Source: a virus (Duplodnaviria; Heunggongvirae; Uroviricota; Caudoviricetes). From it: a DNA stretch of 64,000 bases. Under the pieces are notes generated by a model. It did not search any database. It had not been told where the DNA came from and was given only the letters and a program-made list of their open reading frames with translations. The stretch lies in the IMG/VR virus record IMGVR_UViG_3300034157_000066; one strand, given 5' to 3'. Numbering within the stretch: the first letter of the stretch is position 1; each line of letters starts with the position of its first letter. Shown here in pieces: positions 4,388-60,801 of this stretch. Both the position numbers and the translations under genes were made by a program.

Positions 4388-5611
4388 ATGAACATTAGTG
4401 AAAAAATCAATGAATTGGAAATCAATATTAAATCATTTATTGCGGAAAATAATCTTCCTGTTTTAATTCCAAATAATAATTATCGCATTTCTTTGGATGG
4501 CGAAAATCAATGCGTTTTTGCTCAGAGTGGTAATTCACATCTTTATTTGATTGCACATGAAGATGTTCAAATCATGGAAGATTTTCTTAACTTAAGCCCT
4601 AATACAGTTAACAAGATAAATAAAATTCGGGCTTTTATTCGTGATATGTATGATGACACCAATAATTTCAAACATAAACGGTTGAAAGTTAAAATTGATC
4701 CAGATCAAAGTGTTGAGTTTTCGATTATCGGCCTTGGACTTGGTGGTCTTAGAATTGAATTAAAAGCCACTGAGCTTGTTGTTTCTTGGATTTATGGCGA
4801 TAACGTTAGCGTCATTTATTCTCTCGATGATGACATTGAACAGAAAGTAAATGAAGCATTGGATCTTGTTATACCAACAATATTAACTAAGCTTGGATTT
4901 TTGAAATGCTCAGAACACTCAGAAGAAGTTATTGATTTTATGAATAAATCTACTGATGATTTAATTGTTGAACATTTTTCAAAATTTGGATTTGATTATA
5001 TTCATCAAAATGAATTGATTGCAAATGCATGTTCATCGACCAAAATTAGTTTGGATGACCTTAACAACTATAATAAAAAAAATGAAAAACCTAATCTTAT
5101 TAAAATACCCCATATGATGATGTCTATTTTACCAAAAATCATGAGTAATATTTCATCAGATATTTCAGTGCATTCAAAATTTAAACAACTCCTTAGTCTT
5201 ATTTATTTTTACGACTATTTAAAACCAACAAACTCAGAAGCTCTCTTGATTTTTAAAGAATATTCAAAATTTGATTTAGCCCCATCAGCTAGTTTTCAAT
5301 CTGGATATTTTACTCTTTTAATGGGTGGTCTTCTTAGACTTGATGTAGGGCACCAATTAAAACCAGATCCAGATGATGAAGAACATCTGTTTGATAGCCC
5401 AAGTGAAAATGGTTATGCCTATATGTTTGAAATTTATCTTTATGATGTAGAAGCACCTGATGCTTTTTACAAATACTTTTGTAATGACCTTGATTATATT
5501 TACAATGTTATATTGACTAAAGTTAGAAACTTAATTAATTCAGCTATCTTAAATGTCGATGAGCCACTTACAGCCAGACAAATTGAAGTTTTTAAAATGG
5601 CGACTGTTTAA
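4388..5611 (+). CDS. hypothetical protein (407 aa), paralog of 3054..4277
   Basis: Promoter gtggTATAAT ~4337-4346, RBS gtgaggcgataATG; paralogy to upstream gene. Confidence 0.65.
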   Translation: MNISEKINELEINIKSFIAENNLPVLIPNNNYRISLDGENQCVFAQSGNSHLYLIAHEDVQIMEDFLNLSPNTVNKINKIRAFIRDMYDDTNNFKHKRLKVKIDPDQSVEFSIIGLGLGGLRIELKATELVVSWIYGDNVSVIYSLDDDIEQKVNEALDLVIPTILTKLGFLKCSEHSEEVIDFMNKSTDDLIVEHFSKFGFDYIHQNELIANACSSTKISLDDLNNYNKKNEKPNLIKIPHMMMSILPKIMSNISSDISVHSKFKQLLSLIYFYDYLKPTNSEALLIFKEYSKFDLAPSASFQSGYFTLLMGGLLRLDVGHQLKPDPDDEEHLFDSPSENGYAYMFEIYLYDVEAPDAFYKYFCNDLDYIYNVILTKVRNLINSAILNVDEPLTARQIEVFKMATV

Positions 5612-6087: not shown

Positions 6088-6320
6088 GAATTTTAGCACT
6101 TCTGCGAAAACTTATTGAGAAGTAATTTTTCGCAGTGGTGGCGGAATTCCACCTCGTTGGCAGAGGACTAATGTGAAGGGAGTTGGGGGCAGAACCCAAT
6201 GAAATGTCACAAGGACAATACACCTTGTGTAACTCTAATGAGACAAATTGCCTTGGCGACCCGCCAGTTAAACGCACCTGCGGAATCAGGTCGAGGGGTT
6301 GAAAATTATTAACAATCGTT
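6088..6320 (+). ncRNA. candidate structured RNA or long structured 5' leader of the next gene
   Basis: ~230 nt GC-richer non-coding stretch with multiple hairpins (ctgcgaaaa...ttttcgcag; ggtggcggaattccacc; cacaagg...ccttgtg); no RBS-bearing ORF; second promoter TATACT 6342-6347 follows. Confidence 0.35.
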
Positions 6321-7351: not shown

Positions 7352-7361
7352 TCTACTTATT

Positions 7362-8396
7362 TTAGTTTTTTGATTTTACATAAATTTCTTTCAAGCTGCT
7401 CACATCAAAGTGTGGAGCGGTTGCATAAGAGAAGCTTGGACAAATTCTATTTGGTCCAACTATTCCATTACCACCACAAGGACCACCCGCACCATACACA
7501 GGCCACAATCCGAATGTGTCTGTCATATCAGTAGCTCTCTGACCCGGCCAACCAGCCGCTTCTGGATAGAGTGTTTTCGATCCGATAGATGTATTGACTG
7601 AGAAACCACCTGCAATGTTTTGCCCCTTGTTAAAGGTGTTGAATGTTTGCCAAGAACCAAACATACTAGTCCATGTTGCGTTAGCATTCTTCACCATCAT
7701 CGCAGAACTTATATTCACAGAACCACTTGGGATTACTGGATAGGCTGTTGTATCGTTTGAATAACTGAGTATTTTACCCGTTTTCATTGCCACATCTTGG
7801 AAGTTACGCTTAGCAGACCCAGCCGGTAATTGTGTCCAACGACCCACCAATATCCAGTTCCCTCCAGCAGTATTCATATCAACATAAGCTTTAGCTTTGT
7901 TTCCTAAACCATCAGTAATGTCATAAATGCCGCTTTGACCTGCCACTGGGTTCATGATCATTAGATAACTTGTAGATGTTCCTACAGCATTCTTGGTATT
8001 CGTTAAGTTGCTCAATTCTTTACCAGAGGCTTCATCGTTATACGCAACACCTTTATCACGAATTTCACCTGTTACAGCATTTTTTTCTTGCTTGATATAA
8101 CTTTCATATTTCATACCCTTACAGTTTGTTGCTGTTTGAGTGTAGGTTGTATTAATCAACTCATCGGCTGGTAATGGTGCCCAGTTTGTGCATCCGTATC
8201 TATATAATGGATCTTCTTTTGGTAAATCAACTAAACCTAATGACTTTGGAGTGATTTCTAACCACTCAACTTGTTTGAATTTTATTTCAACAGTCCCCAT
8301 TATCACTTCATATTTTGCATAGGATAATCCGCAAAAAAGAGCAATTGACGCCATTGATAATATTTTTATGTTTTTATTAGTTGTCTTCATATTCAT
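7362..8396 (-). CDS. secreted protein (344 aa) with one copy of Cys-containing ~50-aa repeat (GCTNW.P...QTATNCKG)
   Basis: Signal peptide MNMKTTNKNIKILSMASIALFCGLSYA|KYEV; minus-strand promoter TTGAAA-16-TATAAT in 8397-8460; shares repeat with 8515, 16311, 56048 proteins. Confidence 0.75.
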   Translation of the reverse strand: MNMKTTNKNIKILSMASIALFCGLSYAKYEVIMGTVEIKFKQVEWLEITPKSLGLVDLPKEDPLYRYGCTNWAPLPADELINTTYTQTATNCKGMKYESYIKQEKNAVTGEIRDKGVAYNDEASGKELSNLTNTKNAVGTSTSYLMIMNPVAGQSGIYDITDGLGNKAKAYVDMNTAGGNWILVGRWTQLPAGSAKRNFQDVAMKTGKILSYSNDTTAYPVIPSGSVNISSAMMVKNANATWTSMFGSWQTFNTFNKGQNIAGGFSVNTSIGSKTLYPEAAGWPGQRATDMTDTFGLWPVYGAGGPCGGNGIVGPNRICPSFSYATAPHFDVSSLKEIYVKSKN

Positions 8397-8460
8397 ACTT
8401 TGTTCTTATTATTTTAAGTATTATAATATTTTTATTGTATATTTCAAGTCTTATATAAAA

Positions 8461-8492
8461 ATAAAAGACCTTATGGCCTTTTTATTTTTTTA
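8461..8492. terminator. rho-independent terminator for minus-strand gene 8515..9222 (hairpin aaagaccttatggccttt)
   Basis: Hairpin flanked by A/T runs just downstream (minus sense) of stop. Confidence 0.65.
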
Positions 8493-8514
8493 ATGGTAAA
8501 TCCTCTCTTATCTC

Positions 8515-9222
8515 TTAAATAGCTATTCGACAGACTTGATAAGTTGATTGCTCTGCATTAACAAGTGGCCCCATATAATATCTGTATCCACCAGAAACTA
8601 CAGATGTAAGATTTGTATGGACAGGGTTGTCAAAGATTGTTGCACCTTTCCAATAAATTGCTGTACCCCATCCATATCCAAAATAATTGTCATATCCTAA
8701 ATAATAATAAGAATTATTACTATAATCACTATAATTGTGCCATTTATAGTCACATTCTGGTTGGGCTTTTGTTCCTGTATTTGTTCTGCTTGATGATACA
8801 ACAATGATTTGATCTTCTGTGGATTGTATTCCCTTGTATCTAATAGCTTTCGTTGTTGATTCTTGTTCTCGTTCCTGTATTGAACGTGTTTGTGATTGCT
8901 GACAATTTGTAGCTGTTTGATTGAAGGATTCTCCCAAATTTACAGTAGATGGTTCAGGTGACCAATTATTACACCCAGTAATTGCTCCACTATCAATCCA
9001 TTCACTATATTCTGGGCTGATTACCAACCAATTTTCAGAAGGTGTTTCTGGAATTGTTGGTACCTCTGGATCTGTGGGTGCTTCAGTGGTTGGTTTAAAT
9101 TGAATAGATCCTGATTGTATGTGTCCACCATTATTAGATTCAAGTGGGAAATTTAACATATATCCAGCTTGAATTATGTTTATTGATAGTGCTGCAAATG
9201 ACACAAGTATTATTCTTTTCAT
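8515..9222 (-). CDS. secreted protein (235 aa): signal peptide, Pro/Thr/Glu-rich linker, Cys-repeat, Cys-bounded aromatic-rich C-terminal domain ending YQVCRIAI
   Basis: MKRIILVSFAALSINIIQA|GYMLNFPLES; GCNNWSPEPS...QTATNCQQSQTRS.QEREQESTTKAIRYKG; own TATAAT promoter at ~9262. Confidence 0.75.
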   Translation of the reverse strand: MKRIILVSFAALSINIIQAGYMLNFPLESNNGGHIQSGSIQFKPTTEAPTDPEVPTIPETPSENWLVISPEYSEWIDSGAITGCNNWSPEPSTVNLGESFNQTATNCQQSQTRSIQEREQESTTKAIRYKGIQSTEDQIIVVSSSRTNTGTKAQPECDYKWHNYSDYSNNSYYYLGYDNYFGYGWGTAIYWKGATIFDNPVHTNLTSVVSGGYRYYMGPLVNAEQSTYQVCRIAI

Positions 9223-10461: not shown

Positions 10462-10520
10462 TAACGGAAAAATAACCCCTTCCTTGGGGTTTTATTAAAT
10501 TCAATTAGGAGTGACAGATA

Positions 10521-11108
10521 ATGACTATGACCGCTATTGAACTTCGCAAAGACCTCCTTATTTGGGTGGATCTTGAAACGACTGGCTTGGATATTGCTGA
10601 CAAGTTGTCGGGTGCTCAGTGTCATAAAATCCTTGAAGTCGGTATTCATATTACCGATTCGAAATTCAATATCATTGATGAAGGCTTTGAAGTGGTTATT
10701 CATCATGACGTTGAAGAAGCCAAAGCACTGGCAAATGATTACGTTCGCAATATGCACATCACCAGTGGCTTGTGGGATCGTGTTGACGCATCGCCTGTTT
10801 CGTTGGCCGAAGCAGAAAAAATGATTTTGGCTTATATCGCTCAATTCAACATCGCTCCGGGTTCCAGTCCAATTTGTGGTAACAGTGTTTCGCTGGATCG
10901 CAACTTTATCATGGCCCAAATGTCAACCTTTGCGAGCATCCTGCATTACCGCATCATTGACGTAAGCACTCTTAAAGAAATCGTGTGGCGTGTGAAACCA
11001 GAAGTGGGTATGATGGTTAAAAAGCAAGAAAAACATCGTGGACTTGAAGACATTAAAGAGTCCATTGCGGAATATAAAATTTATGAAGAGTTCTTTTTTG
11101 TAAAATAA
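10521..11108 (+). CDS. orn: oligoribonuclease (Orn, DEDDh 3'-5' exoribonuclease)
   Basis: WVDLETTGLD (Exo I), SPICGNSVSLDRNF (Exo II), HYRIIDVSTLKE...W.VKPE and C-terminal H/D motif closely match bacterial Orn; RBS ttAGGAGtgacagataATG; terminator 11143-11163. Confidence 0.8.
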   Translation: MTMTAIELRKDLLIWVDLETTGLDIADKLSGAQCHKILEVGIHITDSKFNIIDEGFEVVIHHDVEEAKALANDYVRNMHITSGLWDRVDASPVSLAEAEKMILAYIAQFNIAPGSSPICGNSVSLDRNFIMAQMSTFASILHYRIIDVSTLKEIVWRVKPEVGMMVKKQEKHRGLEDIKESIAEYKIYEEFFFVK

Positions 11109-11142
11109 CATAGAATTGTTTAAACTCTACAATACACCTTAA

Positions 11143-11163
11143 AACCTCTTCGGAGGTTTTTTC
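11143..11163 (+). terminator. rho-independent terminator (CUUCGG-type hairpin)
   Basis: aacctcttcggaggttttttc. Confidence 0.75.
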
Positions 11164-11241
11164 TATTCAGATGAATTAAATCCTTTTTTTTTGAAACCAT
11201 TTTGTGTTATACTCATTTCATAATTTAAAGAGGCTTTACCC

Positions 11242-11694
11242 ATGAAAGAACATCAAAACCTGATTACTGCTACCAACGTCTATGCTTGCATTGTAAACGT
11301 CAACAAACTGAAACGAGCATTGGAAGAAAGCCCCGAAGGCTTTATTGAACGCTTGACTTCTTTGCTGCCAGATACGGGTGAAGACTTGATTAAGGCTGAT
11401 CTGGAAGAAGTGTCTGAAGCCTATATCTCTGACCCTTGCAAAGAACATCTGCAAAACCTGATGGAATTCATCATGGAAATTGACCATGTAATCATTTTTG
11501 ATAAAGTGGCTCTTGAAACCACTGAACTCAACAAACTGGCTCAGTATGCTGCAGATACTTTTCTGGATGATGACTATCCACGAGAAACTGAACTGAGCAC
11601 TTCACGGGTTAATCAGCAAATGAAGGGCAATGAAGCTGCAATTAAAGCGGCTACTGCTGCCTTTGAGAAATCCCTTCGTGAAAAGTTCATGTAA
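11242..11694 (+). CDS. hypothetical acidic protein (150 aa)
   Basis: Promoter tgTTATACT ~11205, RBS aaagaggctttacccATG, terminator aaggtcacttcggtggccttttt ~11714. Confidence 0.65.
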   Translation: MKEHQNLITATNVYACIVNVNKLKRALEESPEGFIERLTSLLPDTGEDLIKADLEEVSEAYISDPCKEHLQNLMEFIMEIDHVIIFDKVALETTELNKLAQYAADTFLDDDYPRETELSTSRVNQQMKGNEAAIKAATAAFEKSLREKFM

Positions 11695-11804
11695 ATAAAT
11701 CATCAATGAAAAAAAGGTCACTTCGGTGGCCTTTTTGTTTCTTAAAAATGTTGTTTTTAATGATGGCTTTTGGTATAATAGCTTATCAACTCGATAGGTG
11801 ACTT

Positions 11805-12095
11805 ATGAGCCAAGTATACGAATTTCCACTGTTGACCGAATCTGAATACAACGCAATGTGCATCCTGCGTCAACAACAGTCCATCTCTATCGACAAGATT
11901 GAGGACAAATCGTATGTTGATTGCATGAACACCATCATTCCCGGTCGGAGTATTTTCAACAAACTGATTAAGAAAGATCTTTGTTATGAAACCATTGAAG
12001 ACCCGATGCCAGATGGCACCGAATTTACACCGTCTATTGACTTGACTGATAAAGGTGTGGCAATGTGCCATGAGCTTGAAAAATACATGAAATAG
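11805..12095 (+). CDS. hypothetical protein (96 aa)
   Basis: Promoter aaaatgttgtttttaatg...tgGTATAAT (11740-11778), RBS aggtgacttATG. Confidence 0.65.
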   Translation: MSQVYEFPLLTESEYNAMCILRQQQSISIDKIEDKSYVDCMNTIIPGRSIFNKLIKKDLCYETIEDPMPDGTEFTPSIDLTDKGVAMCHELEKYMK

Positions 12096-12204
12096 TGGAA
12101 TATTTTTCACTTTTAAAAAGTTTTTAAAAAATATCATTTTTGCTATTTACTTAATGTGTTTTTTGTTGTATAATAAAAGTCTAATAAACAAAGGTATTTA
12201 TATT

Positions 12205-12336
12205 ATGCAAGGTTCATTTGGTGACGCAACAGAACGTTTCCGTGGTGGCAAAAAACGTGACACAGAAAAAGCAAAAACTCATGAGCAAGACAAAAACTGG
12301 CGAAAGAAGCGTCGTGATCGTCACGTTAACGAATAA
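12205..12336 (+). CDS. small highly basic protein (43 aa), copy 1 of MQGSFGDA.ERFRGGKK family
   Basis: Promoter ttgTATAAT ~12167-12175; MQGSFGDATERFRGGKKRDTEKAKTHEQDKNWRKKRRDRHVNE; paralogs at 53796 and 60667. Confidence 0.65.
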   Translation: MQGSFGDATERFRGGKKRDTEKAKTHEQDKNWRKKRRDRHVNE

Positions 12337-12352
12337 CGAATTTTACAATTTT

Positions 12353-12425
12353 GGCTGTTTGTAGTTCAGTTGGCAGAACTCCGTCGAAAAACGGTAGTCG
12401 TGGGTTCGAATCCCATCATACAGCC
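12353..12425 (+). tRNA. tRNA-like element with canonical D- and T-arms but non-canonical anticodon arm (pseudo-tRNA or unusual tRNA)
   Basis: 73 nt; D-loop AGTTGGCA, T-arm GTGGG-TTCGAAT-CCCAT, acceptor ~6-7 bp with one T.T; anticodon region CCGT-CGAAAA-ACGG gives 4-bp stem + 6-nt loop (or 3 bp + 8 nt); followed by terminator gaccactttcgagtggttttttt. Confidence 0.5.
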
Positions 12426-12620
12426 TTTATACACTAAGACCACTTTCGAGTGGTTTTTTTATTGATTTTTTATATTATGTAATGATAATCATTCTCATTT
12501 TTTTATTGACTTGACTTATTGCTGTGTTACACTATTGAATACTTTTCTATCATTATGATAAAGAATACTAAACGAATATAGATTGCGTTTTTTGCATCTA
12601 GCTATTAGGAGAATTAAATA

Positions 12621-12932
12621 ATGAAAAAGATAATGTTTGCCTGTTTACTGGTCGTCCCATTAACATCTATTGCGGTGATTGCTAATACCACTGATGTCAT
12701 TAAATCCCGAAATGATCAGTTAGCCGAATTGGTTAAAGACTCATTTTACTCTGATGTGTCTCGTTTGAACTTGACGCCCGATCAATACACCACTATTGTT
12801 AGAAAAATCAGGACTACTAATGATGGGCTGACGACTGAAATTAAAGAAGTCCTTGATGATGACCAAAAAGATACATTTGAAACCATTATGGAAGAGAAAA
12901 AAGCATCTATGGGTGATAAAATAGGCTTTTAA
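12621..12932 (+). CDS. secreted small protein with signal peptide (103 aa)
   Basis: RBS ttAGGAGaattaaataATG; MKKIMFACLLVVPLTSIAVIA|NTTD. Confidence 0.65.
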   Translation: MKKIMFACLLVVPLTSIAVIANTTDVIKSRNDQLAELVKDSFYSDVSRLNLTPDQYTTIVRKIRTTNDGLTTEIKEVLDDDQKDTFETIMEEKKASMGDKIGF

Positions 12933-13119
12933 AATTTCAATAAATTTACTTACCTTAAAAAAGAAGCCTGCAATGGTTTCTTTTTATTTTACTTTTATAT
13001 AATTAATTTTTATAATAATATCTTTTTTTAGATTAATCATATATTTAAGAATCTCTCTTGCCTTTTTACTTTAATACTATTTAATAAGAAATAAACAGTT
13101 CATTAATTCTGAGGTAAAA

Positions 13120-14004
13120 ATGACAAAGAAATATATTTTAGTGCTAATTGCTCTATCCAGTTTAGGCACTATATCGCAAGCTGATTATCAAATTAGAATT
13201 CCAATTCAACAGGCAATCTCTTTCAAGGATGTTACTTCTGGGGGTGGATCAGGCGGTAGTGGCGGCAATGGTAATGGTGGCAGCAACGGTGGTGGTGGAT
13301 TAGTTTTTACTGACCCTACTATATTAGCTGCTTATGAGGAAAAGTGTGGAGCATTTCCTAACAAAATAAATCCGTTGGCTGATCCTATACGAGACTATGA
13401 CATTAGTTGTGGTGATTATTCAAATAGAGATCTTTCTGGTTATGTGCTTGATAAAACAGGTATGCTTTTTACTAATTTTGCAAATTCAATATTAGATGGA
13501 GCTATATTAGGTGATTCTAGCTTGGCTAACAGTAATCTATCAGGAGCATCCTTAATAGGTGCTCAGTTTACCGTAAATGGCGAAAGCACTACATTAACGA
13601 ATGCTGATATTAGTAATGCTAACTTAACAAATGCTTATATGAACAAATCATATTTAGAAAAAACTAATTTTACTGACTCTAATTTAACAGGTGCTGTATT
13701 AACTAACACTAGTTTTGTTGGTGCAAACTTGAAAAATGCTAACTTAACGAATACTAATTTTGACACTTCCTATGTTATTGATACGAATTTTACTAGTTCA
13801 AATTTTACAGGAGCCACATTAACTAATACTGCATTTATTAATACTAATTTTACTAACGCAAATTTGATTGGAGCTGATCTCAGCACCAGTGCGTTCAGCA
13901 ATGTTGATTTCACTAATATCTTGTATGATGCGACCACAAAATGGCCTTCATGGTACACACCACCACAATCTAGTAATGGATATCAGTTCACACCGCAATG
14001 GTAA
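13120..14004 (+). CDS. secreted pentapeptide-repeat protein (294 aa) with Gly-rich linker
   Basis: Signal peptide ...GTISQA|DYQIRIPIQQ (same AxY.I..P mature N-term as secreted family); GGGSGGSGGNGNGGSNGGGG; >20 tandem A(N/D)L(T/S)x pentapeptides (ANLTN, SNLTG, ANLKN, TNFTS, ADLST). Confidence 0.75.
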   Translation: MTKKYILVLIALSSLGTISQADYQIRIPIQQAISFKDVTSGGGSGGSGGNGNGGSNGGGGLVFTDPTILAAYEEKCGAFPNKINPLADPIRDYDISCGDYSNRDLSGYVLDKTGMLFTNFANSILDGAILGDSSLANSNLSGASLIGAQFTVNGESTTLTNADISNANLTNAYMNKSYLEKTNFTDSNLTGAVLTNTSFVGANLKNANLTNTNFDTSYVIDTNFTSSNFTGATLTNTAFINTNFTNANLIGADLSTSAFSNVDFTNILYDATTKWPSWYTPPQSSNGYQFTPQW

Positions 14005-14183
14005 GAAAAAGATTGACAAATTTGAAAAAGTGTTGTCTAAAACAACAACCAAAATGATTGAGATCTTCAATTATCAACCATTTTGAATAAGGCATTTTAA
14101 CCAAATGTCTTATTTTTTTGTCTTAAGTTGCGTTGTTGAACCTTTTGGGCTAAAATATTTTTAAATTAACATGGGACTTTCTA

Positions 14184-14639
14184 ATGATTTTAACTATCGA
14201 ACTTGTACCTAAATCTTGCTGGTTTTCTAACTTGCGAGATCACCTCACGGAAGCACAATGGAAAGAAGTCAAGCTTAGCACATTTAAGGCTGCAGATAAT
14301 CGTTGTGAAATCTGTCATGGTGTTGGGGATAAGTGGCCGGTAGAATGCCATGAGGTTTGGGAATATGACGATATCAATAAGGTACAGCGTCTGGCAAGAA
14401 CTGTTGCTCTTTGCCCATCATGTCATCAAGTTAAGCATATAGGTATGGCGATGGTTACTGGTCGTTACAATCATGCAAAATCACATTTCTCAGCTATCAA
14501 TAAAGTCCCTATGAGACAAGCAGAACGCTATATTGATAAAGCCTTCAACTTGTTTAATGACCGATCAAAGTTTGAATGGACACTAGACATTTCTTGGATT
14601 AACCAAAACTTCGGATTCACTATTAAAGAAAAACGTTAA
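14184..14639 (+). CDS. HNH-like zinc-finger endonuclease family protein (151 aa)
   Basis: CEICHG...ECHEVWEYDD.N...CPSCHQVKH arrangement (CxxC...H...N...CxxC-H) typical of HNH nucleases. Confidence 0.5.
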   Translation: MILTIELVPKSCWFSNLRDHLTEAQWKEVKLSTFKAADNRCEICHGVGDKWPVECHEVWEYDDINKVQRLARTVALCPSCHQVKHIGMAMVTGRYNHAKSHFSAINKVPMRQAERYIDKAFNLFNDRSKFEWTLDISWINQNFGFTIKEKR

Positions 14640-34134: not shown

Positions 34135-35256
34135 ATGTCCAGCATCTTCCCGCGTATTGAAACCCTTGATGATATGCTTCCTCACATCAAAGACCGTGCC
34201 TATATTTCTGTTAATAAACAGGATAACGGTGCCAACATCGTTTGCTATAACATCAGCAACGGCGACTCTTTCAACACTCCGGTTGAAAAGGAAGCTCGCG
34301 GTATTACCTTTGACGACAACGGTAAAATCCTGTCGCGTCCATTGCACAAATTCTTCAACTTGGCAGAGCGTGCAGAAGTCCAACCAGCCGTTTTGGATTG
34401 GAACACGATGGTCGCCGGGTTTGATAAAATGGATGGCTCCATGATTACCACAGGGCTGTTCAACGGCGAATTTTTTGCTAAGTCCAAGAAGTCTTTCAAA
34501 TCGGATGTGGCTGTTTCTGCAGAAAGTTTTGTGTCTCGTAACCAGAAATACTACGAGTTCACCAAATATTGCTCTCAGGCCCAACTGACCCCTATTTTTG
34601 AATTCACTTCGCCAAAACATCGTATCGTTTTGCGTTATGACGAAGACAACATGACACTTCTTCATGTTCGTCACAACATCACAGGCGATTACTTAATGCC
34701 TGCTGACAAAGACCAACTGGCGTTGTTGTTTGATATTCCTGTTAACAAGCCACTGTTTGGTGAAGAATTTGATTTGGCTGCTTTATTGAAGTCGCTGAAC
34801 ACTGTTGAAGGGATTGAAGGCTACGTTATTCAGTTCGTTAACGGTAACATGATCAAAATCAAAACCAAATGGTATATGAACCTCCATCATGCGGTTAGCT
34901 TTGTTCGTGAACGTGATATTGCTCGGTTGGTGGTTGAAGAAAAACTTGATGATTATATCGCTTATTTGTCGCTGAACTCGCCAACGGCTGATTTGAGTGA
35001 GATTTATCGAATCAATGACGCTATCAAAGCTTCGATTGAAGCGTTGTCGAAAGAAGTTGATGATATTGCTGCTGAATTCCAAGGTGTTGATGTGAAAACT
35101 GCAGCAATTCAGCTTAAAGGCCATAAACACTTTGGTTTTGTTATGGGTGCAATTCGTGGTCACAAAAACGACTACCTGTATCACTACTCTAAAAACCATC
35201 TGGTGGATTGGTCGTTGGAACAAATTGAGCTTGGCGACTTGTCAGCTCCGGTTTAA
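34135..35256 (+). CDS. rnlA: RNA ligase 1 family (T4 RnlA-like) paralog A, 373 aa
   Basis: KxDG adenylation motif (FDKMDGSM), RGITFD.NG...RP..KFFNL, EGYV.QF..G...KIKT.WY.NLHH blocks; same length (373-374 aa) as T4 Rnl1; promoter cgaTATAAT ~34096-34104; terminator aagccctgcacttgcggggcttttt ~35270. Confidence 0.8.
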   Translation: MSSIFPRIETLDDMLPHIKDRAYISVNKQDNGANIVCYNISNGDSFNTPVEKEARGITFDDNGKILSRPLHKFFNLAERAEVQPAVLDWNTMVAGFDKMDGSMITTGLFNGEFFAKSKKSFKSDVAVSAESFVSRNQKYYEFTKYCSQAQLTPIFEFTSPKHRIVLRYDEDNMTLLHVRHNITGDYLMPADKDQLALLFDIPVNKPLFGEEFDLAALLKSLNTVEGIEGYVIQFVNGNMIKIKTKWYMNLHHAVSFVRERDIARLVVEEKLDDYIAYLSLNSPTADLSEIYRINDAIKASIEALSKEVDDIAAEFQGVDVKTAAIQLKGHKHFGFVMGAIRGHKNDYLYHYSKNHLVDWSLEQIELGDLSAPV

Positions 35257-36166: not shown

Positions 36167-36222
36167 ATTAAAAATCAGTTTTTGATATAATCAATTCAGA
36201 CAATTTAATCGTGGAGATTCAC

Positions 36223-37344
36223 ATGACTTATCAACAAGAACTGTATGCCCAACTGATGAACCTGTTGGTGACGAATCCGGGGTCGTTCAAATACCGTGAT
36301 GAAACCTCGGCAGTAGACGGCGGGACTTACCGTGTCTTCAACTATGACATTCCAAAGCACTCCGAATTCAAACTTCCGGGTGCTAAGGATTGCCGTGGGG
36401 TCATGTTCTACATGGGCGGTGATGATCCAGTGCTGGTTGCATTGCCTATGCAGAAATTTTTCTCGCTCGGTGAAACCCCAGAGACTCAAAAGATCAAGCC
36501 AGAAGAAGCGGATCATGCTTACTTGAAGCCGGACGGTTCCTTGCTGACCAGCTATATCTCGCCGGTTAACAATACGCTTTACTACAAGAGCAAAAAGAAG
36601 CCAACTTTTGCCGATTATGACCTTGTTGAAAAGTCTATCAGCCCTGAATTGCACGCTGACATTGAACGGTTGACCCGCACAGGTGTTTCTGTTGACTTGG
36701 AATTGACCACGCCCAAAAACCGCGTGTTCATTGAATACACTGATTACGCTGTTCATATCCTAAAAGCCCGTGATATGAGCACTGGTGCTTATGTTGATAT
36801 TCGTTCGGCTGAATTCGCTGCCAAATACCCGGTTATTGCGGCCCATTTGGTGAAACGTATCCCTATCAATGAACTCAACGTCAATGACCCTGAGATTGAG
36901 GGTTATGTGGTTGAATTTGGCACTGACATGTATAAGGTGAAGACAATTCCTTACCTGAAAATGTCGGCAGTTGTCAACATTCAGGATCGGTCGAAGGAAC
37001 GTCAGGTTATTTATGAAGCAACACTTCACGAAATTCTGGATGAAATCCGTTCGTTGTATCACTACCGGACGCACAGCGACAACTTCCCACTGGCTGAAAT
37101 TCTGGCTCGCTTGGATGAAGTAGAAGACTATGCACGTAAAAGCTACCATTACCTTGTTCGCACGGTCGATAGCTTCCACAATGAGCATAAAGGTCTGGAA
37201 CGTGGCGATTACGCTCGTAAAGCCAAAGAAGTGGCTCCATTGCTTCTGTCGGTGTTGATGAGCAAGTTTTCGGGTGATGAGATTGATTACAAACAAGCTG
37301 CTATCATGGTATTTGCTCGTAAACAAGTGCCTATTCCCGAGTAA
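36223..37344 (+). CDS. rnlA: RNA ligase 1 family (T4 RnlA-like) paralog B, 373 aa
   Basis: GGTYRVFNYD...CRGVMF, MQKFFSLGETPE, YLKPDGSLLTSY (KxDG), EGYVVEFGTDMYKVKT, EHKGLERGDYARKAK closely parallel T4 Rnl1 blocks; promoter ttgaTATAAT ~36183-36192; terminator aacggccctagtcttctagggcttttttat ~37353. Confidence 0.85.
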   Translation: MTYQQELYAQLMNLLVTNPGSFKYRDETSAVDGGTYRVFNYDIPKHSEFKLPGAKDCRGVMFYMGGDDPVLVALPMQKFFSLGETPETQKIKPEEADHAYLKPDGSLLTSYISPVNNTLYYKSKKKPTFADYDLVEKSISPELHADIERLTRTGVSVDLELTTPKNRVFIEYTDYAVHILKARDMSTGAYVDIRSAEFAAKYPVIAAHLVKRIPINELNVNDPEIEGYVVEFGTDMYKVKTIPYLKMSAVVNIQDRSKERQVIYEATLHEILDEIRSLYHYRTHSDNFPLAEILARLDEVEDYARKSYHYLVRTVDSFHNEHKGLERGDYARKAKEVAPLLLSVLMSKFSGDEIDYKQAAIMVFARKQVPIPE

Positions 37345-47871: not shown

Positions 47872-48366
47872 ATGAAATCATTCAAAAAAGACGAAAAAAT
47901 TCCCGGTTGTGGTTATTTCTTTGTGCGTGAACGTGGTGTTGATGGTATTCATGCTTTCGAAAAGCACCGTCGCCTTCGTGTCTTTTTTCATAAAGGTTTA
48001 TCTTGTGTAACGCCTAATTGCCAGAATGTGGGTAATCGGTTGATTTTTTCCCGTGATAGCCAAGGTGGTGGACATTGGGACTTGTTTACTGACGATATGG
48101 TTTTGATGACTATTGACCATATTACTGCCAAGAAAAATGGCGGTAGCAATGAACTTGAAAACCTTCAGCCTATGTGCTGCCACTGTAACACTACGAAAGG
48201 CCATCAGGTTATCACGTTGGATGAACTGGCTGTCCAAATGCTCGATTTTGAGGCAAGGATGGAAGCTAAAAAGCAAAAAAAACGTGAACGTCGAGATCCT
48301 GTTGTCATTGCAAGAAAAAGAGAAGAACGGAAGAAAAAACGCGAAATGGTTGCCGAAGCAGCTTAA
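47872..48366 (+). CDS. HNH endonuclease (164 aa), likely free-standing homing-type
   Basis: Canonical HNH core DHITAKKNGGSNELENLQPMCCHCNTTKGH plus upstream Cys pair; Lys/Arg/Glu-rich C-tail; terminator aaagccgccttcttggcggtttttt. Confidence 0.8.
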   Translation: MKSFKKDEKIPGCGYFFVRERGVDGIHAFEKHRRLRVFFHKGLSCVTPNCQNVGNRLIFSRDSQGGGHWDLFTDDMVLMTIDHITAKKNGGSNELENLQPMCCHCNTTKGHQVITLDELAVQMLDFEARMEAKKQKKRERRDPVVIARKREERKKKREMVAEAA

Positions 48367-53795: not shown

Positions 53796-53930
53796 ATGCA
53801 AGGTTCTTTCGGTGACGCAGTAGAACGTTTTCGCGGCGGCAAGAAAAAAGACAATGAACAAGCAAAGTTCCACAAAAAAGATAACGAGTTTCGGAATAAA
53901 CGCCGGAATCGTCATCAAGACGCAGAGTAA
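53796..53930 (+). CDS. small highly basic protein (44 aa), copy 2 of MQGSFGDA.ERFRGGKK family
   Basis: RBS aAAGGATACaaaacATG; MQGSFGDAVERFRGGKKKDNEQAKFHKKDNEFRNKRRNRHQDAE; terminator gcaaagcagtagccagtctactgctttcttgc. Confidence 0.65.
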   Translation: MQGSFGDAVERFRGGKKKDNEQAKFHKKDNEFRNKRRNRHQDAE

Positions 53931-57721: not shown

Positions 57722-57798
57722 GGGACTTTAGCTCAGTTGGTTAGAGCGTCCGACTCATAATCGGCAGGTCGTAGGTTCAAGTCCTACAAGTCCCACCA
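57722..57798 (+). tRNA. tRNA with CAU anticodon (Met, or Ile2 if lysidinylated), CCA encoded
   Basis: Acceptor GGGACTT/AAGTCCC, D-arm GCTC-AGTTGGTTA-GAGC, anticodon loop CTCATAA, T-arm GTAGG-TTCAAGT-CCTAC, ACCA 3' end. Confidence 0.85.
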
Positions 57799-57907
57799 AA
57801 TTGAAAACAACATTAACCACCAGATAATCTAATCGAGTGCCCGAGGTGAACTACCGATGCAGCGATAACCTTAACCTAAATCAGAGAATTTAATTAAGAT
57901 GATAATA

Positions 57908-57934
57908 AAAACCCCGTTTATACGGGGTTTTTTG
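57908..57934 (+). terminator. rho-independent terminator ending tRNA transcription unit
   Basis: aaaaccccgtttatacggggttttttg. Confidence 0.75.
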
Positions 57935-58008
57935 TTTCTACAATATAATATCTTTACATTAATTGCTTTTTTTGTTATCATAACACCATTCAAAAAAGGA
58001 ACATTTCT

Positions 58009-60554: not shown

Positions 60555-60666
60555 GTTGTTTTGAAGGTTTTTGAAAAAAAATGATTGACCGATAAACCGC
60601 TTCTTGATATACTTATCCCATCAAAACGAAACAACACAAACAAACTAATAGGTTAGGAGATACAAA

Positions 60667-60801
60667 ATGCAAGGCTCTTTCGGTGACGCAGTAGAACGTT
60701 TTCGCGGTGGCAAGAAAAAAGACAATGAACAAGCGAAGTATCACAAAAAAGATAACGAGTTTCGGAAGCGTCGCCGTAATCGTCATCAAGACGCAGAGTA
60801 A
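60667..60801 (+). CDS. small highly basic protein (44 aa), copy 3 of MQGSFGDA.ERFRGGKK family
   Basis: Promoter cttgaTATACT ~60603-60613, RBS ttAGGAGAtacaaaATG; MQGSFGDAVERFRGGKKKDNEQAKYHKKDNEFRKRRRNRHQDAE; terminator aaggcatccgaaagggtgccttttttg. Confidence 0.65.
   Translation: MQGSFGDAVERFRGGKKKDNEQAKYHKKDNEFRKRRRNRHQDAE

Follow-up and report, generated by a model that had tools for sequence, protein, structure and literature searches.

The stretch analysed here, which we call the window, comprises 64,000 nucleotides (nt) of the IMG/VR virus record IMGVR_UViG_3300034157_000066, assigned to the Caudoviricetes. Between positions 12146 and 12464 it carries a promoter, an open reading frame (ORF) for a basic protein of 43 amino acids (aa), an element shaped like a transfer RNA (tRNA) and a terminator (Table 1), all of them at the places where a first-pass annotation, made without database searches, had put them. 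A scan of the plus strand from the promoter of the small gene to the element revealed no promoter-like or terminator-like site between the two, and alignment of the window with the related contigs L011-L018 and L023 showed that the promoter stretch (12130-12175) is nearly unchanged. The small ORF and the element would therefore be co-transcribed, as had been proposed, from a start expected near position 12181. The terminator scan returned three terminator-like sites against a background expectation of 0.4. The minimum-energy fold of positions 12337-12466 consists of the cloverleaf and the terminator (z = -2.1), and the fold of the whole 286-nt transcript was uninformative (z = 0.01).

A search of the 64-kb window with the Rfam tRNA model (RF00005) matched positions 12355-12424 over the full model (positions 1-71) with 44.2 bits (E = 3.9e-06), above the gathering score of 29. 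The other tRNAs of the window score higher, with 74.2 bits for tRNA-Met and 59.6 for tRNA-Leu, and in the Infernal alignment the entire deficit of the element falls in the anticodon arm, where three model positions are deleted. Outside this arm the cloverleaf is complete. The acceptor stem (CTGTTTG/CATACAG) has seven base pairs (bp) with a single U5.U68 mismatch, and is followed by a D-arm (GTTC/AGTTGGCA/GAAC), a variable loop (TAGTC) and a T-arm (GTGGG/TTCGAAT/CCCAT). On reading the sequence, we found all of the core nucleotides in place: U8, A14, G15:C48, G18, G19, A21, G46, G53-C61, U54, U55, C56 and A58; position 3:70 is G-C. G-1 (G12354) and C73 (C12424) are present in the window and in all of L011-L018, nine sequences altogether, and in the fold the pairing of G12354 and G12353 with C12424 and C12425 can lengthen the acceptor helix to 9 bp. 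How long the element is, and how far it lies from the small ORF, depends on these flanking nucleotides: the annotated length of 73 nt is reached by counting G-2, G-1 and C74, whereas position 1 to the discriminator spans 70 nt, and the annotated gap of 17 nt from the stop codon is correct to G-1, with 16 nt to G-2 and 18 nt to position 1. Matches to the Trp-leader and isrK families over the same region were sub-threshold and rested on the terminator, and were rejected.

The anticodon arm consists of a 4-bp stem (CCGT/ACGG) and a 6-nt loop (CGAAAA, 12385-12390), which amounts to 14 nt compared to the 17 nt of a tRNA. The first-pass annotation had recognized this stem and loop, together with the good D- and T-arms and the one acceptor mismatch. 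A canonical arm has a 5-bp stem and a 7-nt loop with U33 and a three-nucleotide anticodon; here there is no 7-nt loop and, in the 6-nt reading, no U33, the loop contains GAAA, and no GTG occurs anywhere in the arm from which the GUG anticodon of a tRNA-His could be formed. ARAGORN, from which a canonical call had been named beforehand as refuting the annotation, reported positions 12355-12425 as 'tRNA-???' with a two-nucleotide anticodon. The annotation had also raised the idea of an expanded loop; the opposite is the case, with the arm short by one base pair and one loop nucleotide. The element thus passes the Rfam threshold for tRNA, fails on the anticodon arm, and is not a canonical tRNA.

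We then compared the locus with its relatives. The eight contigs L011-L018, whose contexts were fetched through homologues of the small protein, derive from eight different samples and form a sister lineage, and every one carries the element. They are syntenic with the window, with an oligoribonuclease gene, a 150-aa gene and the small ORF in succession, followed by a 103-aa gene. Recurrence in eight independent metagenome contigs is far beyond chance. Between the window and these contigs the element is 96-99% identical, with 1-3 differences in 70-73 nt, compared to 86-89% for the small ORF, 75-80% for the flanking genes, 69-73% for the downstream intergenic region and 56-73% for intergenic DNA overall. 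The difference was significant in Fisher tests both against the coding flanks (p = 1.6e-06 to 5.5e-05) and against intergenic DNA (p = 1.1e-06 to 4.9e-05). Within the spacer that follows the stop codon, conservation restarts at TTTTGG (12349).

The changes that did occur within the element are confined to four positions, 17, 21, 44 and 59, every one of them unpaired, for which the chance is (30/70)^4 = 0.034, given that 30 of the 70 positions are unpaired. The miniature arm is the same in eight of the nine sequences, and in L014 it is one A shorter, giving a 5-nt loop. In three contigs position 44 is G instead of U, which turns the 26:44 juxtaposition from U.U into U.G; because this juxtaposition is normally non-Watson-Crick, the change is no evidence of covariation. 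Such strong conservation relative to the flanks, with changes at unpaired sites only, is not how a decaying pseudogene behaves. The element shows neither the near-neutral rate nor the stem or tertiary damage expected of a pseudogene, a statement limited by the rate within L011-L018, which equals that of the flanks. The decaying pseudo-tRNA considered by the first-pass annotation is accordingly disfavoured, the element being 96-99% identical where its flanks are 56-80% identical.

To place the element among tRNAs, we searched 50,697 annotated phage records with blastn and found that the longest matches, running from the D-arm through the T-arm, were overwhelmingly annotated as tRNA-His, in Aeromonas, Escherichia, Shigella and Erwinia myoviruses. 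A pattern of the body that left the length of the anticodon arm free found one full-length tRNA in IMG/VR. This tRNA-His(GUG), located on a 413-kb contig, matches the element exactly in the D-arm and variable loop and almost exactly in the T-arm, and it also has G-1 and C73. In metagenome data the same pattern recovered this contig again, together with a tRNA-Thr. The exact pattern of the element had no match in viral contigs, and the pattern restricted to the short arm had none in viral contigs or in 185,579 reference bacterial and archaeal genomes. The full-length body pattern was likewise without a match in these 185,579 genomes, leaving the body without a cellular ancestor there; we conclude from its absence that the body belongs to a phage tRNA lineage.

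Canonical phage tRNA-His(GUG) genes, as found in Aeromonas phage Ah1, T4-like Escherichia and Shigella phages and IMG/VR UViG_3300031994_000001, share with the element the D-arm GTTC/AGTTGG(C/T)A/GAAC, the variable loop TAGTC, the T-arm GTGGGTTCGAATCCCA and C73, and the tRNA on the 413-kb contig shares G-1 as well. They differ from it in the sequence of the acceptor stem, which in the element has the U.U mismatch, and in that the element has an unrelated 14-nt hairpin in place of the 17-nt GUG arm and no encoded CCA. Two of the three hallmarks of tRNA-His, the G-1:C73 pair and the body, are thus present and the third, the GUG anticodon, is missing. The tRNA-His matches together with G-1 and C73 indicate a tRNA-His derivative with a replaced anticodon arm, and since the sequence of the arm is unrelated to that of His anticodon arms, the arm was exchanged rather than merely nicked. 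In bacteria, the identity elements for histidyl-tRNA synthetase (HisRS) are G-1 and C73, with the anticodon as a lesser element (PMC9976931). HisRS charges mini- and microhelices bearing G-1:C73, and transplanting the pair confers histidine acceptance (PMC9976931).

The small protein encoded upstream belongs to a family of 43-44 aa proteins with the consensus MQGSFGDA[TV]ERFRGGKK...RH... and 17 residues that are invariant across 17 sequences. A profile search of 1.8 billion proteins yielded 24 representative clusters. An AlphaFold model predicts a single long basic helix (residues 5-39) with a predicted local distance difference test score (pLDDT) of 72, and no match was found in Pfam, PHROG, NCBIfam or the Protein Data Bank, including any known RNA-binding family. 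The gene is multi-copy: the window has three copies (starting at 12205, 53796 and 60667) in separate transcription units, each equipped with a promoter and a terminator, and only copy 1 has the element. Where copy 1 has AAAGG ahead of its start codon, its paralogues and relatives have AGGAG or AGGAT. Many of the homologue loci without the element are the contexts of other paralogues, and have nothing but a terminator, or else the next gene, after the small ORF. A D-arm-like motif 3' of the small gene in L032 and L035 was not tRNA-like by Rfam and was dropped. Two further copies lie on contig L006 (ENA ERZ27281805 k141_522346, 1,843,594 bp) at 5091-5225 and 6101-6235, among phage-like arrays of small genes; possible explanations of this contig are misassembly or concatemer formation, an integrated element, and a phage genome of exceptional size. 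In L007 a gene for a PAS-domain methyl-accepting chemotaxis protein (7354-8673, minus strand) sits in an array of small genes that is otherwise phage-like. It is thus a tiny gene that is repeated and strongly signalled in very large phages.

In contigs L019 and L020 (6001-6220) a canonical tRNA-Arg(UCU) with an encoded CCA (71 bits) begins 8 nt past the stop codon of a paralogue and precedes a terminator, and the closest paralogues of this copy have the terminator only. Together with the element at copy 1, this indicates that on at least two occasions a tRNA gene arrived between the stop codon and the terminator, and that the unit of the small gene hosts expressed tRNA genes. The transcription unit of the small gene thus appears to be an expression platform, or recurrent landing place, for tRNA genes in these very large uncultivated phages. 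This role accounts for the co-transcription and makes a dedicated peptide-RNA complex unnecessary; the basic peptide is a neighbour of the element, not a demonstrated partner. Each of the three window copies has a tRNA-type gene no more than 3.6 kb away (small-gene copy/tRNA-type gene at 12270/12390, 53863/57412 and 60734/57760), a weak hint of a looser link with a post-hoc simulation probability of about 0.012. The family may accordingly be loosely linked with tRNA genes. In L001, L019 and L027-L029, tRNAs also occur 1-5 kb from the small gene.

On balance, and with moderate confidence, we favour a reading in which selection has kept the element as the gene of a non-decoding tRNA mimic that descends from a phage tRNA-His. 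The element is a real, non-canonical and apparently maintained gene of tRNA-His descent. The small gene and the element would be made as one transcript. RNase P recognises the stack of acceptor and T-arm and the elbow, all of which are intact in the element, and the host enzyme would cut on its 5' side, probably leaving G-1. The trailer would then be trimmed and CCA added. The product of excision would be a stable RNA of about 71-75 nt, and the small mRNA would be parted from its terminator hairpin. As the element has no U-turn nucleotide and no anticodon it cannot decode, and any function must run through the acceptor end and the elbow. Given that HisRS charges mini- and microhelices with G-1:C73, the processed RNA is a plausible substrate of this enzyme, in which case it would be histidylated, or a competitor for it. 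Alternatively, the RNA might act as a competitor or decoy for another factor with affinity for the tRNA body; candidates are enzymes of tRNA processing or modification, and defence or toxin proteins that target tRNAs. If the element is a maintained mimic, we judge the chances of actual histidylation to be roughly even.

A number of observations weigh against a maintained tRNA-His mimic. The comparison of orthologous loci found the element kept throughout L011-L018, but no compensatory change in any stem, and all carriers fall within two closely related lineages, so that the support for function is conservation within a narrow lineage only. Within L011-L018 the divergence of the element matches that of its flanks (2.0% compared to 1.6-3.1%), and the block of element plus terminator occurs as two alleles in near-identical backgrounds; block exchange among relatives may contribute to the similarity between lineages. 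L023, an equally close syntenic relative, cleanly lacks the element. As for the descent from tRNA-His, the tRNA-Thr (L025) ties with tRNA-His when the anticodon arm is ignored and only the bodies are compared, the tRNA-His of Aeromonas phage Ah1 is a relative of the body without an encoded G-1, and G-1 by itself would occur by accident roughly once in five. The case for charging is weakened by the G-2:C74 pair, which could shift RNase P cleavage, and by the lack of an encoded CCA, compared to the window's canonical tRNA-Leu and tRNA-Met, which encode it. The idea of a peptide partner, which had been the original attraction of the locus, is unsupported.

Several of these points would follow if the element were a recently inactivated tRNA-His pseudogene, in which a small rearrangement broke the anticodon arm and a block of about 115 bp (element, trailer and terminator) is young or was recombined between co-infecting relatives. 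The block evolves no slower than its flanks within L011-L018, has its two alleles and is cleanly missing from L023; the loop varies in length (L014), CCA is not encoded, and degenerate tRNA relics do exist in phage tRNA clusters, as exemplified by a 32-bit 'tRNA-???' in L025. We nevertheless consider a pseudogene unlikely. From the divergence of the flanks some 15-20 differences would be expected in 70 nt and only 1-3 are seen, and outside the anticodon arm no stem pair or tertiary nucleotide is damaged. The ends of the conserved block coincide with those of the RNA and its terminator and not with a long recombination tract; the 16-nt spacer immediately upstream shows 56-62% identity and an indel. 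As for the arm, it forms a clean hairpin whose sequence bears no relation to that of a His anticodon arm, and does not represent a simple 3-nt deletion.

Still less probable, in our view, is a purely cis-acting processing signal, a bacterial analogue of MALAT1-mascRNA by which RNase P, with RNase E or Z, would set the 3' end or half-life of the small mRNA and release an RNA without function. The position of the element within the 3' untranslated region (UTR), ahead of the terminator, would suit such a signal, and its presence at one of three paralogues fits a copy-specific tuning of expression. RNase P needs the acceptor and T-arms and the elbow only, which are exactly the preserved parts, and can dispense with the anticodon arm. 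However, the miniature arm, G-1/C73 and the variable loop are conserved as much as the RNase P determinants, the tRNA-Arg at the same position in L019 is clearly a tRNA and no mRNA signal, and loss of the terminator hairpin would destabilise the mRNA without a clear benefit.

We regard it as highly improbable that the element is an unorthodox decoder, with a 6-membered loop (C-GAA-AA, Phe-type without U33) or an 8-membered loop on a 3-bp stem, serving doublet or quadruplet reading, frameshifting or recoding in phage genes. ARAGORN gives a 2-base anticodon, Infernal can align U33-CGA-A37-A38, the loop sequence is conserved, and some eukaryotic tRNA-Trp can decode with a 4-bp anticodon stem. Set against this, the 6-nt reading has no U-turn nucleotide, the arm is one base pair short, the loop of L014 has 5 nt, and a His-type acceptor with a Phe- or Ser-type anticodon would miscode. 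Furthermore, a full-text literature search for a 6-membered anticodon loop, worded in four ways, had no match to any of them, and its matches for 'shortened anticodon' concern neither such a loop nor a phage. Equally remote is a dedicated ribonucleoprotein of the basic peptide and the tRNA-like RNA, suggested by the first-pass annotation and in keeping with their co-transcription, the very basic, predicted single long helix of the peptide, the proximity of all three window copies to tRNA or tRNA-like genes and the tRNA-Arg after a paralogue in L019: two of the three window copies and most homologues elsewhere have no adjacent tRNA, the orthologous L023 retains the peptide without the element, and the peptide matches no known RNA-binding family.

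A selectively maintained, non-decoding mimic has several counterparts among known RNAs. The Bacillus cereus pseudo-tRNA 'tRNA-Other' is a tRNA-derived RNA that fails the anticodon rules. Closer in arrangement is mascRNA, a tRNA-like, non-decoding cloverleaf with an undersized anticodon loop that tRNA-processing enzymes excise from the 3' end of a longer transcript; this RNA belongs to the eukaryotic nucleus, and has been reported as not aminoacylated. The RNA is freed from MALAT1 by RNase P (mentioned in PMC9976931). The position of the element in a 3' UTR and its intact acceptor, T-arm and elbow are compatible with an excision of this type, the cleavage by RNase P being inferred. In contrast to mascRNA, with which it shares no sequence, the element lies on a phage mRNA and has the HisRS identity pair.

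This pair links the element to the His-accepting tRNA-like structures at the 3' ends of plant RNA virus genomes, whose N-1:N73 pair is recognised by HisRS (PMC9976931). Like them, it is a viral, non-decoding tRNA mimic with a -1:73 pair; unlike these pseudoknotted termini of RNA genomes, which have roles in replication, it is a gene of a DNA phage with an ordinary cloverleaf. The tRNA-like domain of transfer-messenger RNA (tmRNA) likewise mimics a tRNA without an anticodon arm and is charged through its acceptor stem. A tmRNA was rejected as the identity of the element, because ARAGORN found none, position 3:70 is G-C where a tmRNA has G.U, the D-arm is complete and an mRNA-like domain is missing. 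The YrlA module of bacterial Y RNAs (RF02553), which occurs in some phages and is linked to RNA repair, mimics the acceptor, D- and T-arms of a tRNA without the anticodon (PMC4201824); it is permuted, with its two ends placed within the Ro-binding stem, in the position of the anticodon stem (PMC4201824). The link to RNA repair recalls the two Rnl1 ligases encoded in the window. However, RF02553 had no match at E <= 1 in positions 12100-12600 or in the whole window, no Ro/TROVE domain was found among 36 window ORFs scanned against Pfam, and with the ordinary, non-permuted tRNA topology of the element this led us to reject YrlA as its identity. The element is most like mascRNA-type excised RNAs and the His-accepting viral tRNA-like structures, is a member of neither, and belongs with the known tRNA-like non-coding RNAs as a variant among them.

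Within phages, we found a second stub-armed element in Curtobacterium phage Parvaparticeps, annotated as 'tRNA-OTHER' (MZ357096.1, 12099-12165; L041 695-761). It scores 41 bits with the Rfam tRNA model and has complete acceptor, D- and T-arms, an anticodon arm reduced to a 12-nt stub, and G3.U70 with A73, the identity set of alanyl-tRNA synthetase (AlaRS). No relatives were found in the phage collection, where it is a singleton, and it differs from our element in the isotype of its body, with no homology beyond generic tRNA motifs. It is suggestive of an independent parallel, namely a stub-armed phage element with its identity located in the acceptor. The 'tRNA-???' of L025 (1215-1287, minus strand; AATGG-ATTTTA-CCATT, a 6-nt loop, beside a tRNA-Thr(UGU)) was considered as a second member and rejected; its score of 32 bits and the broken pairs in several of its stems suggest a tRNA in decay. 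A more speculative, and on present evidence doubtful, extension is that phages encode chargeable tRNAs without an anticodon that keep acceptor identity sets, His (G-1:C73) here and Ala (G3.U70 and A73) in the Curtobacterium phage. Such stub-armed RNAs would be aminoacylated by a host synthetase and never enter decoding, and might serve as non-ribosomal aminoacyl donors, as titrators of a synthetase or EF-Tu, or as decoys against tRNA-directed immune nucleases or toxins.

Table 1. Features of the small-gene transcription unit, its tRNA-like element and the two paralogues in the window.
Feature	Position	Strand	Basis or remark
Sigma-70-type promoter, TTTACT-17-TATAAT	12146..12174	+	10/12 matches; top promoter-like site of the region
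Shine-Dalgarno-like AAAGG, 10 nt 5' of ATG	12190..12194	+	Sequence reading
43-aa basic protein gene MQGSFGDATERFRGGKKRDTEKAKTHEQDKNWRKKRRDRHVNE, copy 1 of three paralogues in the window	12205..12336	+	ORF, conserved family
Spacer from stop codon to element, poorly conserved; 56-62% identity and a 4-nt indel compared to L011-L018	12337..12352	+	Alignment
G-2 and G-1, able to pair with C74 and C73	12353..12354	+	Sequence; fold gives 9-bp helix
tRNA-like gene, position 1 to discriminator C73, 70 nt	12355..12424	+	ARAGORN; Rfam tRNA, 44.2 bits; 96-99% identity in 8 contigs
Acceptor stem of element	12355-12361 / 12417-12423	+	Standard tRNA numbering
U8 and A9 of element	12362-12363	+	Standard tRNA numbering
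D-arm of element	12364-12379	+	Standard tRNA numbering
Nucleotide 26 of element	12380	+	Standard tRNA numbering
Miniature anticodon arm, 14 nt	12381..12394	+	Infernal; ARAGORN
Variable loop of element	12395-12399	+	Standard tRNA numbering
T-arm of element	12400-12416	+	Standard tRNA numbering
C73 of element	12424	+	Standard tRNA numbering
3' trailer CTTTATACACT, 11 nt, AU-rich, without encoded CCA	12425..12435	+	9-10 of 10 positions kept compared to L011-L018
Intrinsic terminator, 9-bp stem, 4-nt loop, T-run	12436..12464 (hairpin 12436-12457)	+	Terminator scan; fold
Paralogue 2 of the small gene, own hairpin after it, without tRNA-like element	53796..53930	+	Sequence comparison
Paralogue 3 of the small gene, own promoter (60585-60613) and terminator, without tRNA-like element	60667..60801	+	Sequence comparison

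The stem of the terminator is conserved, and its loop differs between the two alleles. Over trailer and terminator (12426-12464) the window and L011-L018 show either of two forms, with the terminator loop TTTCGA or TTCAGA and with or without an extra T, and these are shuffled relative to the variants of the element and to near-identical flanks, which suggests very local recombination.

The wider window is gene-dense, with 35-40% GC and many short ORFs that could not be annotated, and encodes two T4 RnlA-type RNA ligases, an oligoribonuclease, HNH endonucleases and three tRNA-type genes. Megablast of positions 10500-14500 against cultured phages gave no match, and searches of IMG/VR proteins with the neighbouring 96-aa, 150-aa and 103-aa genes found nothing. 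Other window proteins match those of large myoviruses and jumbo phages, and the contigs that carry relatives measure 254 kb, 498 kb and 1.84 Mb; we have taken the window to derive from the genome of a very large, uncultivated phage. The Rnl1 (T4 RnlA-type) ligases, members of a tRNA-repair ligase family, are tandem paralogues (34135-35256 and 36211-37344), both of which match TIGR02308 at E ~1e-43 with a score under the equivalog cut-off; their best phage relative, at 42% identity, is in the Ralstonia jumbo phage RsoM2USA. The oligoribonuclease (10521-11108; NCBIfam equivalog NF003765, 197 bits compared to a cut-off of 106) is encoded 1.2 kb upstream of the element, with synteny kept in L011-L015. 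Of the HNH endonuclease genes at 14184-14639 and 47872-48366, one (phrog_5200, E = 1.5e-48) is found 1.7 kb downstream of the element, and positions 13120-14004 encode a pentapeptide-repeat protein that has a glycine-rich linker and whose N-terminus is hydrophobic and signal-like. Directly after the tRNA-Met(CAU) gene (57722-57798) there is a sub-threshold match (57878-57973, 31.8 bits, gathering score 47) to the gammaproteobacterial rimP leader; the pair resembles the bacterial metY-rimP arrangement, and may hint at the host or at capture of host DNA.

Usually only two roles are considered for the tRNA genes of phages: supplementing codons, and replacing tRNAs that host defences have cut. An intact tRNA body with a stub in place of the anticodon arm fits neither role. 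If expressed, the element points to a large phage using the tRNA shape independently of translation. Its G-1:C73 pair makes charging by the host HisRS an idea that can be tested directly with standard assays. As a young relic, on the other hand, it would be an ordinary finding.

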